Virus record (IMG/VR): IMGVR_UViG_3300037042_007110
Coordinates: 57,157-77,156 of that record
Reading direction: 5' to 3' (one strand)
Length of the DNA: 20,000 nucleotides
Origin: an uncultured virus (IMG/VR IMGVR_UViG_3300037042_007110)
Lineage: Duplodnaviria; Heunggongvirae; Uroviricota; Caudoviricetes
This document shows positions 7,982-14,162 of this stretch, piece after piece. The position numbers and the translations under genes were made by a program. Below the pieces are notes generated by a model that saw nothing but the letters and a program-made list of their open reading frames with translations, had not been told where the DNA came from and ran no database searches. How positions within the stretch are numbered: the first letter of the stretch is position 1; each line of letters starts with the position of its first letter.

Positions 7982-8005
7982 GTCATTGAGCAGACGCTCA
8001 ATGAC
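7982..8005. promoter_or_regulatory. perfect inverted repeat made of two back-to-back CAAT-box elements
   Basis: GTCATTGAGC-agac-GCTCAATGAC; plus copy (copy 4) is 29 nt before DUF4417 ATG 8028. Confidence 0.65.
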
Positions 8006-8027
8006 CGGCGTGGTAGAAACGAAGGCC

Positions 8028-8801
8028 ATGGGCATTCCGAACGTCAAGGACTGGAAGTGCCTCCCCGGCAACTGGGACCCGCTCCACGCGACGTCCTTGT
8101 ATCGGAGCGCGAACAGGTTCGGCCTCCCAGATGTCGCCGGCCCGGTCGATTGGGTGCCGGACGTGCTGCTTCCGTGGGTGAACCGGAACAAGCTCGACGA
8201 CGACGAAGTGGCTGGCGGCTGTTGGCACTTCTTCTTCGACGACTACCGATTCGAGTCGGTCTGGAACAATCCCGGGAGGTACGACCGCTACGTCCTTGGC
8301 GCGCAGGGCGTGCTGACGCCGGACTTCAGCATGTACGTCGAGTGGCCGCCCGCGCTTCAGCTCTGGAACACCTACCGCTCGCGGTGGCTCGGCGCCTATT
8401 GGGCTGCTCGCGGGGCGGTCGTGGTGCCCACGGTCAACTGGGGCGACTGGCGTACGTTCGACTTCTGCTTTGCCGGGATCGCGCGACGTTCGACGGTCTG
8501 CGTTTCGACGGTAGGTATCAGGGTCGGGGAGGATGTGCGACGTCGGTTCTGCGAGGGGTACCGGGCGATGGTCGACACGATTCAGCCATCCATGGTCCTC
8601 GTGTACGGGGAGCTCTGGGATGACCTCGGCGTGGCAGACCTTTCGTCATTCGCTCGCTTCTCGCCCAAGGGTATACTCGAGATGCGTTCGCGGCTGGAAC
8701 GTGGTCCCGTGGACACGCGGCAGTTGAGCCTCTTGGACGGCCTGTTCGATGACGAGGCAGACGCGGAGCCGGTCGACGCAATAACGGGGACAGGAGGCTG
8801 A
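8028..8801 (+). CDS. DUF4417 domain-containing protein
   Basis: Motifs WHFFFDDYRFESVW, LTPDFSMY, QLWNTYRSRWLG, VVPTVNWG, FCFAGI, VSTVG, VLVYG; start placed at ATG 8028 after GAAGG and the CAAT box (ATG 8001 is an alternative). Confidence 0.85.
   Translation: MGIPNVKDWKCLPGNWDPLHATSLYRSANRFGLPDVAGPVDWVPDVLLPWVNRNKLDDDEVAGGCWHFFFDDYRFESVWNNPGRYDRYVLGAQGVLTPDFSMYVEWPPALQLWNTYRSRWLGAYWAARGAVVVPTVNWGDWRTFDFCFAGIARRSTVCVSTVGIRVGEDVRRRFCEGYRAMVDTIQPSMVLVYGELWDDLGVADLSSFARFSPKGILEMRSRLERGPVDTRQLSLLDGLFDDEADAEPVDAITGTGG
8776..8786 (+). promoter_or_regulatory. CAAT-box element, copy 5 (inside the DUF4417 3' end)
   Basis: ACGCAATAACG, using a rare ATA codon; AGGAGG follows; ATG 8804 is 25 nt downstream. 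Confidence 0.5.
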
Positions 8802-8803
8802 CC

Positions 8804-9148
8804 ATGGGCGGACGTGGTGGAGGAGGCGGTGGTGGTGGTGGTGGTGGAGCTGCCGCGGGTGGGGGTGGAGCTGCCGCGGCTGCCCCGCCGGCTGCCCCGG
8901 CTCTCCCGACCCCGCATTCTCTGAACAACGCTACCCTTGTCCGCGAGTACGACAACCTTGAAAGGCGGATCGAACAACGTGTGTCGACCGCGGAGGAGCG
9001 TGCTCGGTTCATCGAACTGCGTCGGGAGGCCAACGCGCGGTCCAACCTGGGCGTCAACGGGCTTCGGCCCGCGATCCCGCAACGTACTGGCGGTGGCGGT
9101 CCGCCAACGCGGCGTCAGCCGGCTCCGCGACCCCGCGGACAGCGGTAG
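8804..9148 (+). CDS. MGGRG-poly-Gly leader protein 1 (114 aa)
   Basis: AGGAGG RBS; MGGRGGGGGGGGGGGAAAGGGGAAAAA then unique helical body. Confidence 0.85.
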   Translation: MGGRGGGGGGGGGGGAAAGGGGAAAAAPPAAPALPTPHSLNNATLVREYDNLERRIEQRVSTAEERARFIELRREANARSNLGVNGLRPAIPQRTGGGGPPTRRQPAPRPRGQR

Positions 9149-9157
9149 GAGGTCAAG

Positions 9158-9553
9158 ATGGGAGGACGAGGTGGCAGTGGCGGCGGCGGTGGCGGACGCG
9201 GCGGTGGCGGCGGAGGCGGGGCGGCGGCCGAACCGCAGGCGAGTGCGGAGATCTCCGGGCCGGTCGGCCGATGGCTGCAGACAGCTGTGACGACGGACGA
9301 AGGCGCGCAGTTCCGCGATCTTCGGGTGACCCCGGCCGCGGGCGGTCTCTTTCGGGTGGACGGGCCCGTGAGCCAGCTTCGGTCGGCTTCGGACGTGATG
9401 GACTGGTACGGCGGAAACCCAGGGGATCGCGGTCCCAGCTTCCGCTTCCCTCGGGGAACGAACTCAAGGTCCATGTACGCCGCGTCGGGTCGTCTCATCG
9501 GGGGCATCCGTGAGGCAGAGGGCGGTCGGCGCGAAGGACCAGGGCGGAGGTGA
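9158..9553 (+). CDS. MGGRG-poly-Gly leader protein 2 (131 aa)
   Basis: TAGGAGG RBS overlapping previous stop; MGGRGGSGGGGGGRGGGGGGGAAA. Confidence 0.85.
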   Translation: MGGRGGSGGGGGGRGGGGGGGAAAEPQASAEISGPVGRWLQTAVTTDEGAQFRDLRVTPAAGGLFRVDGPVSQLRSASDVMDWYGGNPGDRGPSFRFPRGTNSRSMYAASGRLIGGIREAEGGRREGPGRR

Positions 9554-9558
9554 TTCAC

Positions 9559-9921
9559 ATGGGCGGACGTGGTGGTGGCGGTGGCGGTCGAGGCGGCGGC
9601 GGAGCAGCCGGCGGCGGTGGGGGTGGTGCCGCGGGCGGCGGCGGGGCAGCCGAGGTTCCGCCCGCTGTCGCGTCGGCTGGGCGAGCCATGTCCGGGGCCA
9701 TCGCGGCGATGGACCGGATGGACCGCATGACGCCCTTCTCCGGGTGGTACAAGGGCGACCACGGCGAAGCTCGCCGCGACCTCATCCGAGCGACGCGGAC
9801 CTACCTCGACTCGAATCCGCCGCCAGAGCTCGCGGCGCACGCCCGGAACTTCATGTACGGAGTTCGGCGCAACAACCGTGACCTGGACCCGCAGCTCCGC
9901 GACGCGCTGCGGAGCTACTAG
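9559..9921 (+). CDS. MGGRG-poly-Gly leader protein 3 (120 aa)
   Basis: GGAGGTGA RBS; true start is ATG 9559 rather than GTG 9550. Confidence 0.85.
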   Translation: MGGRGGGGGGRGGGGAAGGGGGGAAGGGGAAEVPPAVASAGRAMSGAIAAMDRMDRMTPFSGWYKGDHGEARRDLIRATRTYLDSNPPPELAAHARNFMYGVRRNNRDLDPQLRDALRSY

Positions 9922-9930
9922 GAGGCGACG

Positions 9931-10329
9931 ATGGGCGGACGTGGTGGTGGCGGCGGTGGCCGGGGAGGCGGAGGCGGCGGTGGGGCTGCTGCAGGAGGCG
10001 GCGGTGGCGGCGGAGCAGCCGCGGTGCTCGCCGAGGCAGCGGCGTCAACGGACCCGGCTGGGGACTTCTCGCCAGCCCGGCTGCAGACGCTCTCGGACCC
10101 GGAGCTGCGCGCGCTCGGTGAGGGCATCAGCACGCGGGGTGTCTGGGGCGATTGGCGTTCGGCTACGTGGCAGGGCGTCGGGATGAACGCGACCGACGCG
10201 ATGAACCGCCGAGGGACGCTCCCGTCGGGGCTCACGGTGAACGAGCTGCGCCAGCTCCCGTCCGGCGTCAGACCGAGCGAGGAGCGGATCAGGCAGGCCG
10301 GGTTGCGCCCCGGTGAGCGGACCCCGTAG
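9931..10329 (+). CDS. MGGRG-poly-Gly leader protein 4 (132 aa)
   Basis: TAGGAGG RBS; same leader, unique body. Confidence 0.85.
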   Translation: MGGRGGGGGGRGGGGGGGAAAGGGGGGGAAAVLAEAAASTDPAGDFSPARLQTLSDPELRALGEGISTRGVWGDWRSATWQGVGMNATDAMNRRGTLPSGLTVNELRQLPSGVRPSEERIRQAGLRPGERTP

Positions 10330-10350
10330 CGGGCGAGCAGGAGGTAAGTC

Positions 10351-10860
10351 ATGGGCGGTCGAGGCGGAGGAGGCGGCGGTCGCGGCGGTGGTGGAGCTGG
10401 CGGTGCCGCGGCCGGCGGTGGCGGCGGAGCAGCCGCGGCCGAGACGGCGACGGTGGTCGAGGCCTCCGGGCTCATCCCCGGCGGGGCTCCACGGCTCGCG
10501 GACGTGCAGCGGAATGTCGCGGCTGCGAATGCGGAGACGCCGCAACAGCGCCAGCGCCGAGCCGAGCGGGCTCTGGTCGACGCCATCAGCGTCGTCCCCG
10601 GGCTGCGCGACCAAGGGCTCCAGGTGAACCGCGACGTGAACACCGGGCGGATCGAGCTCAATTCGGTCGGCCGAGGGAGCAGGACGCGTCCGCTCACCGA
10701 CCGAGAGCAACAGGCCATCGGAGAGATGCTGACCCGACAGGGCATGTCCGGAGCGACAGTCGATCCGGTCACCCGTCCGCGGCCAAATCGACAGCGTCGA
10801 GGTGAAACGCAACTGGCGCGGGTCTACCTGCCCGACACGAGCAGAACAGTCGCGCGGTAG
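10351..10860 (+). CDS. MGGRG-poly-Gly leader protein 5 (169 aa)
   Basis: AGGAGGT RBS; same leader, unique body. Confidence 0.85.
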   Translation: MGGRGGGGGGRGGGGAGGAAAGGGGGAAAAETATVVEASGLIPGGAPRLADVQRNVAAANAETPQQRQRRAERALVDAISVVPGLRDQGLQVNRDVNTGRIELNSVGRGSRTRPLTDREQQAIGEMLTRQGMSGATVDPVTRPRPNRQRRGETQLARVYLPDTSRTVAR

Positions 10861-10869
10861 GAGGTCAAG

Positions 10870-11373
10870 ATGGGAGGACGTGGTGGTGGTGGTGGTGGAG
10901 GCGGCGGCGGTGGTGGTGCCGCGGGTGGTGGCGGGGCAGCCGGCGGCGGTGCCGCGACGGAGACGGCGGCAACGGCGGCAACGGAAACGGTCGTCTCGGG
11001 TGGGCTCCCGGCCGGGCGGTACCCGGGCAACTTGAACCGCAACGACGTCGAAGCCGCAGGCAACGTCATCAGCGTCGGGCAGACCAACGACATCGTCGTC
11101 CGCCAGGTGACAATCGACCGCGGGCAGAACATCCGCGGCGAGCCCGTCTTCGATGTCGCGACGTCCTCGCGCTGGGGACAAGGCGCCAGGGAATTTGGGG
11201 CGCCGAACCGGACGGCAGCGACGACACAGCGGAGCCAGCACGCGACCCTGGAGGCTGCTCAACGGGAGGCAACGCGGTCTGCGGCTGAGTCCGCTCGGCG
11301 GCTCTCCGAGGAGCGGCGGCAGCGTCGGCCATCGTTGCCGACTACTGGCACACGGCCAGGTGGACGGAGGTAG
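10870..11373 (+). CDS. MGGRG-poly-Gly leader protein 6 (167 aa)
   Basis: TAGGAGGT RBS; same leader, unique body. Confidence 0.85.
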   Translation: MGGRGGGGGGGGGGGGAAGGGGAAGGGAATETAATAATETVVSGGLPAGRYPGNLNRNDVEAAGNVISVGQTNDIVVRQVTIDRGQNIRGEPVFDVATSSRWGQGAREFGAPNRTAATTQRSQHATLEAAQREATRSAAESARRLSEERRQRRPSLPTTGTRPGGRR

Positions 11374-11376
11374 GTC

Positions 11377-11871
11377 ATGGGCGGACGTGGAGGCGGTGGC
11401 GGCGGTGGCGGCGGTGGCGGGGCAGCCGGCGGAGCAGCGGCCGGTGGCGGTGGCGAAGCGGCCGGCGGGCTCCCGACAGAGGTGACTCCGCTGACCGGAC
11501 GCATGATCGCCGAGGACGTGATCGAGCGGGTTTCGGCAGCGCCACCGACCGGGACGCGCGCCGAGGACTTCTACAATAACGGCGGTGCCGTGTTCGTGGG
11601 GAACGAGCGCGTGCGCTCACCCTACATGGCGATGGTCCAGACGCGGCGGTCGAACACCGACGAGGTCACGGTCACGGAAGGAGTGCCAGCATTCCGTAAC
11701 CAGGACGGGACGTACTCTCGCCCAGGCGGGCTGTCTACCATACCCGCGCCACGCGCGTTCAGTGGCCCGACCGCCGTGGCCGACGCGCAGGCCCACGTCG
11801 CTGCTCGCACCCGATTCCACGGCGAGCGCCTTGCCCGGGAGCGTGCGCGTCTCGCTCGTGCCGGCCGCTGA
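11377..11871 (+). CDS. MGGRG-poly-Gly leader protein 7 (164 aa)
   Basis: GGAGGT RBS; same leader, unique body. Confidence 0.85.
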   Translation: MGGRGGGGGGGGGGGAAGGAAAGGGGEAAGGLPTEVTPLTGRMIAEDVIERVSAAPPTGTRAEDFYNNGGAVFVGNERVRSPYMAMVQTRRSNTDEVTVTEGVPAFRNQDGTYSRPGGLSTIPAPRAFSGPTAVADAQAHVAARTRFHGERLARERARLARAGR

Positions 11872-11874
11872 CCG

Positions 11875-11885
11875 GCTCAATGACC
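11875..11885 (+). promoter_or_regulatory. CAAT-box element, copy 6
   Basis: GCTCAATGACC immediately after the array; GGGAG then ATG 11905. Confidence 0.6.
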
Positions 11886-11904
11886 GGGGCGGGAGTAACG
11901 AAAC

Positions 11905-12342
11905 ATGGGAGCCTGCTTGGCGTGCTCTGGAGAGATGGGCAAGGTGGACACCTGCGTCAAGAACGTGTCCGTCGTGTTCCCGGACGGGGAGTCCCTTCCG
12001 ACGGTGCCCTACCGCCCGGCCGGGCGTCACTGCTGTCATGACTGCGGGGTGCGCCCCGGCGGTCGGCACCATCCTGGCTGCGACATGGAGCGGTGCCCGC
12101 GGTGTGGAGGCCAGCTCCTCTCGTGTGGGTGCTTGGACGTCTCCTACGAGGCCTGGCTCGCCGAACACGAGGCAAATGCCTGGCTCCGCACAGCACTCCG
12201 TGAGTGCGCCAAGCAGATTCGGTCCCTGGCAGGACAGATGCTCGATCGCGCTGACCACGTCGAAGCGTTCTGTTCGGTGGCCGGCGAGATGGAGGCGGAT
12301 GCCGACCGGCCGACCGACCCGCTGGAATTGGAAGACCAATGA
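11905..12342 (+). CDS. Cys/His-rich metal-binding protein with C-terminal coiled coil
   Basis: CLAC...[37 protein letters not shown]-coupled to the radical SAM gene. Confidence 0.75.
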
Positions 12343-13436
12343 CCGAGCCCCGGGTGAAGCGGAGGTACGTTCGCGACAAGTGGCGGCAGCCGCCGCCGCC
12401 ACACGCGCCTGCAGACGCCATCGCTGCTGACCCGGCGGCTGCTCTGGTCCAGCGTCCCTGGTCCGTCCAGATCGAGCTGACCGAAGGGTGTACCCGGCTC
12501 TGTTCCTTCTGCGGACTGAACGCAATCCGCACGAAGCCTGGCGGCTTCAAGCCGATGACGCTCGACACGGCGCTGCTCGTGGCTGAACAGGCAGCCGCCC
12601 TTGCCCCGTGGGCGCGGTACGAGTTCGCGATGCACGGTGAACCACTTGCCAACCGACAGGCGGTCGAGGTGGTGGCGACCTTCAGGGCGCTGCTCCCGAA
12701 GGCGCAGCTCCAGATGACCACGAACGGCCAGCTTCTCCGGGGCCGGATGCGAGAGAAGATCGTCGGGCTGTTCGACGCCGGACTCGACTACGTCATCATC
12801 GACACCTACCGTGAGGACAGGGACGACCTCCGCGCCGAAGCAGCAACGCTTGGCGTCGGCATCACCGTACGCGACTTCTACGCTGACCTCGCCCCCAGCG
12901 GGTGGTCGCCGTGGGGGAACCACAGGCGCTTCGCCCGCCGGCTCGTCGTGCTCATGGACGACCTGGGACTTCGCGACCGGGAGCGGGCCAGCCGCAAGGT
13001 GCTCAACCACGCCGGGGCGAGCCCGGCTCGCCCCGTTCCAGAAGCTCCGCTCCGGAAGAACTGCTCGAACCCCTTCCGCGAGCTCGCCGTCACCTGGAAC
13101 GGCGAGGTGCGGCTCTGCTGCATCGACTGGCGCGGCGATTACGTCTGCGGCGTGGCTGATCGGGACGAAACGCTGACGGATATCTGGTGGGGCTGGCGGT
13201 TCATGGCTGCTCGGCGCCTGCTCGCGTCGAAGGATCGTCGGTTCGCGCCGTGTGGTTGGTGCGACAAGGACGCCGGCACGCGCGCCTTCCTCCTTCCGAA
13301 GATGCCGAAGCCTTACCCGGACGACGCAGAAGTCGCGGTGCGCGCAACGGCCGGCGGGCCGGTCGGAGCAGCCTGGCCGCGACTCTGCCACCCGCCCGCC
13401 TACTGGCGCGACCCGCCCGGCGGTGGCGTAGACTAG
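12339..13436 (+). CDS. radical SAM protein with C-terminal SPASM/twitch domain
   Basis: [16 protein letters not shown] (CxxxCxxC), [30 protein letters not shown]...PCGWCD auxiliary cluster motif. Confidence 0.92.
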
Positions 13437-13454
13437 AACCCTCGGAGGTACGCC

Positions 13455-14144
13455 ATGCGCTGGAAGTGGATCGTATCCGTCGCCGCCTTCGCGGCCATCG
13501 CCGTGACCGCCGTCGTGCTGCTCGTGTGGTTCGTTCCGCGGCACACCGAGCCGCTCCTGCTTCGTGTGTGCTGGAGCGGAACGGTCGCGCAGTACGCCGA
13601 CCAGGTTGAAGGCTCGGGCGCCGTCGGCGTCTGTGCGTCGCCGGAAGAGGTCCGTTGGGGCAGGAGCGCCTTCCCGCTGTGCCTTGGGGTCCGCAACGAG
13701 AGCGCGGAGCTGACGTCGGCGGACATGCGTCGTGCCGAGTATGCGGTCCGCGAGGTCAACATGCAGCTCGGCTTCGACGCCCTGGCCTTCTGTCCGGTCA
13801 GCGCCGAACCGCGCGTTGCCCTGGTCTTCGGTGTTCCTGCGGAGGCGGCGGACGCCGACGCCGGCTGCTTCCACACCCGCGAGGTCGGAAGCGGCTTCGT
13901 GGCCAGGGCCACTGTCCGGATGCGGAACGTCCCCGACGACGGGACGGCACACCGGGTTCTGGTCCACGAGCTCGGGCATGTACTTGGGCTTGCCCACGAC
14001 CCCGACGACAGCGGGTCGGTGATGTATCCGCTCGCCCCGGACATGGCGTTCCAGGGCGGGCTCGCGCCCGGGCGGTTCCGGGACGCTGACGCGCGGTTGC
14101 TCCGTGACCTGTACGACAGGACACAGGACGCGCCGGCGCAATGA
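13455..14144 (+). CDS. matrixin-like (metzincin, M10-type) zinc metalloprotease, N-terminal membrane anchor or signal
   Basis: HELGHVLGLAH (HExxHxxGxxH) plus Met-turn SVMYP; hydrophobic residues 5-27; GGAGG RBS. Confidence 0.88.
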   Translation: MRWKWIVSVAAFAAIAVTAVVLLVWFVPRHTEPLLLRVCWSGTVAQYADQVEGSGAVGVCASPEEVRWGRSAFPLCLGVRNESAELTSADMRRAEYAVREVNMQLGFDALAFCPVSAEPRVALVFGVPAEAADADAGCFHTREVGSGFVARATVRMRNVPDDGTAHRVLVHELGHVLGLAHDPDDSGSVMYPLAPDMAFQGGLAPGRFRDADARLLRDLYDRTQDAPAQ

Positions 14145-14146
14145 CC
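14136..14146 (+). promoter_or_regulatory. CAAT-box element, copy 7
   Basis: GCGCAATGACC over the protease stop codon; GGAGG 14152-14156, ATG 14163. Confidence 0.55.
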
Positions 14147-14162
14147 GGGGCGGAGGACCTCG

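Follow-up and report, generated by a model that had tools for sequence, protein, structure and literature searches.

A Gly-Gly-Arg-Gly N-terminal tag accompanies DUF4417 proteins of phages and conjugative elements and may address unrelated proteins to mobile DNA

The uncultured virus IMGVR_UViG_3300037042_007110 (Caudoviricetes) is a phage from sediment represented by a 77,156-base contig (69% GC, 71% complete). In the 20,000-nucleotide stretch that forms its end (positions 57,157 to 77,156, hereafter the window), a gene of the DUF4417 family is followed by seven consecutive genes whose products begin with Met-Gly-Gly-Arg-Gly (MGGRG) and continue into unrelated bodies. The link between this tag and DUF4417 is strong. 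We propose that DUF4417 recognises the free GGRG start and covalently ties the seven proteins to the phage DNA for co-delivery, a reading to which we give a probability of about 40%.

Association between the tag and DUF4417

A similarity fetch for DUF4417 yielded 165 loci, a redundant set with many cluster A mycobacteriophages, and 162 of them had at least 300 bases downstream. In 115 of these 162, a gene beginning start-G-[GKS]-R-G was found between -330 and +200 relative to the DUF4417 stop, and 57 further tags occurred elsewhere on the DUF4417 strand. The opposite strand contained no strict tag in 1.47 Mb of DUF4417 loci, which excludes a chance origin of the tag. Metagenome contigs had the tag beside DUF4417 in 32 of 65 loci, again with none on the opposite strand. 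The reverse test used 80 of 132 viral stretches with a ribosome-binding site plus MGGRG (72 distinct): DUF4417 lay at most 4 kb from 44 of the 53 MGGRG genes encoding at least 70 amino acids, as against 2 of the 19 remaining stretches. The association that the initial annotation had put forward, and for which it had proposed an enrichment check, thus holds in both directions.

The family comprises 3,967 clusters at 50% identity and occurs in 506 phage records, including mycobacteriophage D29. The annotations of D29 gp2 and of many relatives miss the tag, as the correct start codon lies within an overlap with the DUF4417 gene. D29 gp2 (L002, 1063-2097) is annotated with 259 amino acids; an in-frame upstream MGGRG start, overlapping gene 1, gives 344, and many cluster A relatives have the same gene 1/gp2 overlap. 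On one single contig (L226-L228), two DUF4417 genes are interleaved with several tagged genes.

Probable exposure of the N-terminal glycine

In nine loci the tag stands behind LQ[FY]F instead of Met. When 80 of 120 viral stretches encoding NLQ[FY]F-GGRG were examined, DUF4417 was present within 3 kb in 79, and the start codon lay 1-4 codons upstream in all. Motifs of the LQ[FY]F type are described as the site at which Prp, a protease of Firmicutes, cleaves L27 and proteins of phage 80alpha (PMC9405229). Two routes, Met removal and Prp cleavage, would expose one and the same Gly-Gly-Arg-Gly end. The relevance of an exposed N-terminal glycine, which the initial annotation had derived from Met removal, appears borne out: the free glycine likely matters because the Firmicute versions place the Prp-type motif directly before GGRG.

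The seven-gene array

The open reading frames of DUF4417 and of seven MGGRG genes of 114-169 amino acids were found where the initial annotation had placed them. The features are as follows.

7982..8008, plus strand: inverted pair (dyad 7982-8005) of a recurring motif, GC[GTC]CAATGACC-like, immediately 5' of DUF4417
8028..8801, plus strand: DUF4417 protein, 257 amino acids (Pfam PF14386, E 5.5e-49)
8804..9148, plus strand: tagged protein 1, 114 amino acids, 27-residue leader; body missing in the five-gene form described below
9158..9553, plus strand: tagged protein 2, 131 amino acids, 24-residue leader; missing in the five-gene form
9559..9921, plus strand: tagged protein 3, 120 amino acids, 31-residue leader; a diverged allele, whose body is about 90% identical in amino acids, heads the five-gene form
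9931..10329, plus strand: tagged protein 4, 132 amino acids, 31-residue leader
10351..10860, plus strand: tagged protein 5, 169 amino acids, 30-residue leader
10870..11373, plus strand: tagged protein 6, 167 amino acids, 29-residue leader; probable homologue is the first tagged gene of the relative L531
11377..11871, plus strand: tagged protein 7, 164 amino acids, 26-residue leader
11875..11887, plus strand: second copy of the recurring motif, at the end of the module and the head of the gene group that follows

DUF4417 scores 166.6 bits against a gathering cut-off of 28.9 for PF14386, and its stop is separated from the first tagged gene by 2 nucleotides. All seven tagged genes have GGAGG 5-6 bases 5' of the ATG and leaders of 24-31 residues made of Gly, Ala, Arg and Ser; no other MGGRG start occurs in the 77-kb contig. 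The leaders use mixed Gly codons and the bodies have a third-position GC content of 0.70-0.88, signs that the tagged genes code for protein. The gaps within the array are 3-21 bases, and at this locus no untagged gene, such as an adjacent immunity gene, is interposed. The (D/N)LQ(F/L)F Prp motif was not present in any of the seven window proteins.

Stripped of their leaders, the seven bodies did not match one another convincingly (best BLASTP E 0.005-0.03), in agreement with the initial annotation, which had considered them unrelated; they are not diverged paralogues of one family. Neither Pfam nor PHROGs gave a match, nor did the remainder of the phage (lowest phmmer E 0.07), and the bodies were unrelated to 172 tagged proteins of other loci, with the exception of L001. 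Body 6 matched its counterpart in L531 with an E-value of 1e-4, in a single comparison and partly through the leader; a homologue search with tagged protein 6 gave none beyond L531.

The array varies between close relatives. A near-identical complete relative (G001, 108,577 bases; locus L001) has an identical DUF4417 but only five tagged genes, without bodies 1 and 2. Of the last 79 codons of gene 3, 55 are identical in the L001 copy, 15 differ synonymously and 9 non-synonymously, a further sign of protein coding. The junction of the five-gene form (8862 to 9698) was found in contigs of all four sequencing runs examined, from four studies; the seven-gene form was complete in one run only, possibly the source of the record itself. 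In L531 (74% DUF4417 identity) the array opens with a poly-Gly gene with the body 6-like sequence, and a second tag begins at the contig end. Across 358 DUF4417 loci, a set that includes overlapping and tag-selected loci with limited flanks, strict tags numbered zero in 70, one in 207, two in 52, three in 24, four in 4 and five in 1. The initial annotation had called a seven-fold expansion unusual; small arrays of two to four tagged genes are in fact common (80 of 358), and seven is the largest number among the loci examined. This locus is the most expanded and a demonstrably shuffled example among them.

The poly-Gly coding sequence is repetitive, and the array gains or loses genes through it; the repeated leaders might thus simply reflect recombination within a GC-rich repeat, with the tag functionless. 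We find this scarcely credible: GGRG is conserved in genomes rich in AT and in genomes rich in GC, where different codons encode it, stands behind Prp leaders too and occurs only near DUF4417, and the reciprocal linkage described above largely refutes such an origin.

Predicted fold and conserved residues of DUF4417

The structure model of DUF4417 (pLDDT, the per-residue model confidence, 86) is predicted to be a TIM barrel of the TGT type, and fold searches placed it closest to the TGT/DpdA transglycosylases (PDB 7UI4, 1IQ8), with the non-catalytic QTRT2 sharing second place. Structure prediction and fold search therefore point away from the sortase- or acyltransferase-like chemistry raised in the initial annotation and towards a TGT/DpdA-type barrel.

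Among 176 non-redundant homologues the conserved residues are H67, D71, D72, F75, D99, S101 and R117, with H67, D72, S101 and R117 near-invariant. D71 (168/176), F75 (174/176) and D99 (175/176) fit D95, F99 and D130 of DpdA by spacing and by a collinear, non-significant profile alignment, and the guanine pocket (D71, F75, D99, Y193) is predicted to be kept. Three alignment end points place the nucleophilic Asp of TGT at residue 211, which is Phe in the window protein, Tyr in 130 and Phe in 34 of the homologues; D[ST] occurs within residues 204-215 in only 7 of 176. The nucleophilic Asp of TGT and DpdA is thus predicted to be replaced by Phe or Tyr in DUF4417.

QueC, which supplies 7-deazaguanine, was not found in the complete relative G001 and exceeded the cut-off in 7 of 32 host genomes, a set in which many are incomplete; deazaguanylation is for this reason not the general route. 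The same counts bear on the view that DUF4417 adds a small molecule (a base, sugar or nucleotide) to the tag in the producing cell, stabilising, activating or neutralising its partners with no DNA delivery. The available accounts of CdnD and QatB (cited below) establish modification of the N-terminal Gly for the former and propose it for the latter; several toxin-like cargos would need control, and the array of this phage stands among non-structural genes. The scarcity of QueC argues against general deazaguanylation, and a position beside packaging or coupling-protein genes would be left unexplained; we regard this view as unlikely.

Fusions of ParB to DUF4417 are common. In Gordonia phage Chidiebere (L005, 2038-5532), the fusion precedes a gene for a Lys/Arg-rich protein that contains a Gly-rich stretch in its interior, and after this comes a gene that we take, from its motif, to be JAB-like; this arrangement is perhaps another way of exposing a Gly end. 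An actinomycete conjugative element (L160, 3402-4382) encodes a true DpdA three genes 5' of DUF4417 and its tagged partner.

Tagged cargos and toxin fusions

The tagged proteins of all loci (246) fall into 61 body families. Pfam matches were obtained for 9 of 60 scanned families, leaving 51 with no match: ADP-ribosyltransferase, DUF3626 (D29 gp2), a papain-fold deamidase (twice) and DUF6883 exceeded the cut-off, four more were weak, and PHROGs added peptidases. The effector-like nature of the cargos, anticipated in the initial annotation, is in this way supported by tagged proteins of other loci.

Long cargos of Chloroflexi (600-1089 amino acids; L144:6669, L089:6653 and 25 other loci) lie beside coupling-protein or relaxase genes, and all 27 have the motifs GGAD[NH]DDA and WRSPN in common. 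We presume these motifs to be those of a YonO/RdRP-like polymerase, and the proteins are possibly a new family of single-subunit RNA polymerases on conjugative elements.

In a clostridial clade DUF4417 is fused to a barnase-type RNase, Ntox37 or Ntox50. A linker of the form x-G-[GM]-G-[SHA] was found in 39 of 49 non-redundant members, with Lys first in 37, and was missing in 10; D99 is relaxed in this clade, where the linker has no Arg. Orphan cassettes that begin at the linker occur in L501 and L506. The fusions with a K-G-[GM]-G-S linker (L451-L530; P0179, P0187, P0196, P0197, P0229, P0236, P0244, P0264) are apparently an undescribed class of polymorphic toxins.

Phage and conjugative contexts

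The viral context was analysed in 43 DUF4417 clusters, 37 of which had sufficient downstream DNA; in 25 of the 37, a terminase, portal or head gene was among the two longest open reading frames within 3.5 kb downstream. On elements that form no virions, a type IV coupling-protein gene lies directly 5' of the module in Chloroflexi, other elements carry a relaxase and a primase-polymerase, and those of actinomycetes FtsK, a primase-polymerase and an integrase. A coupling-protein, FtsK or relaxase marker was present within 6 kb in 24 of 54 tagged chromosomal loci. What the phage and conjugative routes have in common is transferred DNA, not a capsid.

The initial annotation had compared the tag to the capsid-targeting N-terminus of T4 internal proteins, and this analogy is weak because the module is also found in conjugative elements that have no capsid. 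In its full form, the tag would be a capsid-targeting signal and DUF4417 a head-assembly factor loading proheads. The 25 of 37 viral loci that precede packaging or head genes speak for it, as do the late expression of genes 1-32 of D29 and L5 (PMC5712189) and the trimming of 80alpha capsid and scaffold proteins by Prp. The occurrence of the module in elements of the type IV secretion and FtsK types and in chromosomal toxin fusions, together with a nucleic-acid-base-binding fold that would be left unexplained, makes this improbable.

Terminase, portal, MuF and capsid genes were identified by Pfam in the near-identical relative G001; tail-sheath and baseplate-like genes are those we take to be such from their sequence. 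A poly-gamma-glutamate hydrolase gene is found among the G001 head genes, and an ATP-dependent DNA ligase domain is fused to an XkdF-type prohead protease (L298, 14964-16946). Just 5' of the terminase and outside the window (L299, 12210-15254), a radical-SAM gene with a weak Pfam match is accompanied by genes that we assume to be ParB-like (zero Pfam matches) and glycosyltransferase-like; this group is a candidate DNA-modification cluster.

The motif GC[GTC]CAAT[GA]A[CG]C occurs in 15 copies on the plus strand of the 77-kb contig and in none on the minus strand, its first 26 kb being empty. Five copies lie in the window (4706, 7996, 11875, 14136 and 16558), the motif occurs across 26156-73714 of G000, and most copies stand shortly 5' of the starts of non-structural genes. 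The dyad before DUF4417 is likely a phage-specific promoter or operator element of the DUF4417 operon, and the sharing of the motif with non-structural genes suggests that the array is co-regulated with them.

A radical SAM/SPASM gene (12339-13436) and a gene for an M10/M12-like zinc metallopeptidase with a hydrophobic N-terminus (13455-14144) lie 3' of the array and appear to be a separate, deletable module. The contig of one run exits at 11892 and resumes after the motif copy at 14136; this deletion between two motif copies (11892-14150) removes the Cys-rich, radical-SAM and metallopeptidase genes.

Proposed mechanism

DUF4417 very probably reads the tag, and it is rather probable that the cargo travels with the DNA; a covalent bond between the two is a more tentative proposal. 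In the first step, Gly1 would be exposed by Met aminopeptidase or, in Firmicutes, by Prp. DUF4417 would then open a base in the DNA of the element, and the amine of the tag, replacing the absent nucleophile, would attack the sugar C1' while the Arg of the tag docks in the Asp-lined base pocket. Amine nucleophiles act at C1' in bifunctional glycosylases. In the fused clade the linker Lys amine, in the same register, would play the part of the Gly amine. The poly-Gly segment would serve as a tether by which any body can be carried, and its DNA repeats would allow cargo genes to be deleted or swapped. In the recipient cell the link would finally be either undone or tolerated, and the cargo would act early there. 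DUF4417 is thus possibly a transglycosylase with an outsourced nucleophile, in which the GGRG tag or the Lys linker of the fusions attacks the sugar of the element's DNA.

Several observations weigh against this mechanism. An amine-C1' bond is chemically labile, and protein adducts could hinder DNA packaging. Foldseek gave no PDB match at E ≤ 0.001, the profile comparison with TGT and DpdA was not significant (probability 0.1%), and the residue mapping is extrapolated over 2-5 residues from alignment end points and motif spacing. By a direct count of exceptions, the strict tag is missing at 59 of 358 DUF4417 loci, 27 of which have at least 2.5 kb downstream; a few of the tag-negative loci bear variants such as MGRNS, MGGKR or MAKG. 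The loss of D99 in the fused clade could be decay and not relaxed tag reading. The array of the present phage lies some 14 kb away from the terminase, and the motif before it recurs at non-structural genes, so that there is no sign of late expression; the seven bodies have no effector domain recognisable by Pfam or PHROGs.

A lost nucleophile suits a non-catalytic binder such as QTRT2 equally well. DUF4417 might then be a TGT-fold adaptor that binds the free GGRG, with Arg mimicking guanine, as well as DNA, and loads its cargo non-covalently, helped by a ParB clamp where fused. Phe or Tyr at the nucleophile position, the rank of QTRT2 in the fold search, the frequent ParB fusions and the relaxation of D99 where the linker lacks Arg are in line with this, and the phage and conjugative contexts fit as well. 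Each cargo molecule would require its own 257-residue adaptor, however, and near-invariant H67, D72, S101 and R117 and the conserved Lys of the fused linker look like chemistry beyond binding. We consider such an adaptor rather doubtful and prefer covalent attachment.

Significance

In the sources available to us, DUF4417 appears as a ParB fusion of unknown function and as an entry in an annotation table. A literature search, which covers subscription journals poorly, found no paper on the pairing of DUF4417 with MGGRG. Effectors injected with phage and conjugative DNA are described in PMC5512222, the available text of which has neither DUF4417 nor this module, and the available part of PMC9503650 has nothing relevant to it. 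The DUF4417-tag system matches no described family and is new as a system, not yet as chemistry.

If the proposed mechanism is true, the module is a general, peptide-addressed way of attaching any protein to phage or conjugative DNA, used in this phage for a recombining panel of five to seven effectors. The entry of proteins alongside such DNA is understood in few cases, and the module would add a new route of delivery that is not tied to the type of capsid. Hundreds of uncharacterised genes, the seven described here among them, are singled out by the tag as candidate early effectors or anti-defence proteins. If the link is covalent, the TGT fold would also gain a new kind of protein-DNA chemistry, and GGRG would provide a minimal tag for conjugating proteins to DNA.

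Comparison with known systems

The best structural matches of DUF4417, TGT and DpdA (PMC10164549), resemble it in the motif D95-S-G-G-F99 of DpdA, which by motif spacing would correspond to D71-D72-Y-R-F75, and in D130, which would correspond to D99. DpdA and DUF4417 are both found on mobile DNA. In contrast to these enzymes, DUF4417 has Phe or Tyr at the predicted position of the nucleophile Asp256/Asp280 and no zinc module, and its obligatory neighbour is a Gly-tagged protein, with no deazaguanine pathway nearby.

Engagement of a partner's Met-cleaved, Gly-rich and flexible N-terminus by a TGT-fold protein is described for Cap10 with CdnD/Cap9 of the type IV cyclic-oligonucleotide-based antiphage signaling system (CBASS; bioRxiv 10.1101/2025.04.06.647259) and for QatBC (PMC13279940). 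Cap10 holds the Gly-rich N-terminus of its partner, a protein that the authors suggest is then transferred to a target (bioRxiv 10.1101/2025.04.06.647259); QatB has a similar essential Gly (PMC13279940). As described, type IV CBASS differs in that a QueC-like enzyme first adds 7-amido-7-deazaguanine, Cap10 retains the nucleophile D248, and a single CD-NTase partner serves host defence. The DUF4417 system lacks QueC and, by prediction, the nucleophile; the Arg of its tag is invariant, and its unrelated cargos number dozens and are encoded by phages as well as conjugative elements. No CD-NTase was found by Pfam among the seven window proteins.

MGGRGG differs from the CBASS motif M(G/S)G(G/S)GG at position 4 (Arg) and is otherwise alike. 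The tagged proteins might therefore be decoys for host defence enzymes that act on N-terminal Gly motifs (Cap9/Cap10 of type IV CBASS, QatC), since MGGRGG also resembles MGTS of QatB and several copies would raise the decoy dose. DUF4417 and diverse folded bodies of up to 1089 amino acids would be superfluous for this purpose, the invariant Arg is foreign to those motifs, and the toxin fusions do not fit, so that we regard decoys as very improbable.

The internal proteins of T4 are unrelated small proteins with a common short N-terminal signal that is cleaved in the prohead, and no dedicated enzyme gene is known to lie adjacent to them. Unlike that signal, the GGRG module also occurs apart from capsids. 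The Firmicute tags resemble the Prp substrates L27 and the 80alpha capsid and scaffold proteins in having (D/N)LQ(F/Y)F right before the cut (PMC9405229), and differ from them in the residue that follows, Gly and not Ala. In the seven window proteins, which have no Prp leader, exposure of the Gly would depend on the removal of Met.

MuF polymorphic toxins and polyvalent proteins, as described in PMC5512222, similarly comprise variable effectors (ADP-ribosyltransferase, papain-fold, metallopeptidase, RNase and polymerase-like) near head genes or on conjugative elements, are thought to enter with the DNA and exchange their cassettes by recombination. Trafficking of MuF proteins depends on a folded domain; here a four-residue tag and a separate enzyme-like protein, or a fusion to DUF4417, take its place. 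A constant N-terminus followed by exchangeable C-terminal bodies, as in MuF-type toxins, is seen in the 61 body families, in the five- and seven-gene forms of the array and in the orphan cassettes of the fused clade, which resemble polymorphic toxin loci.

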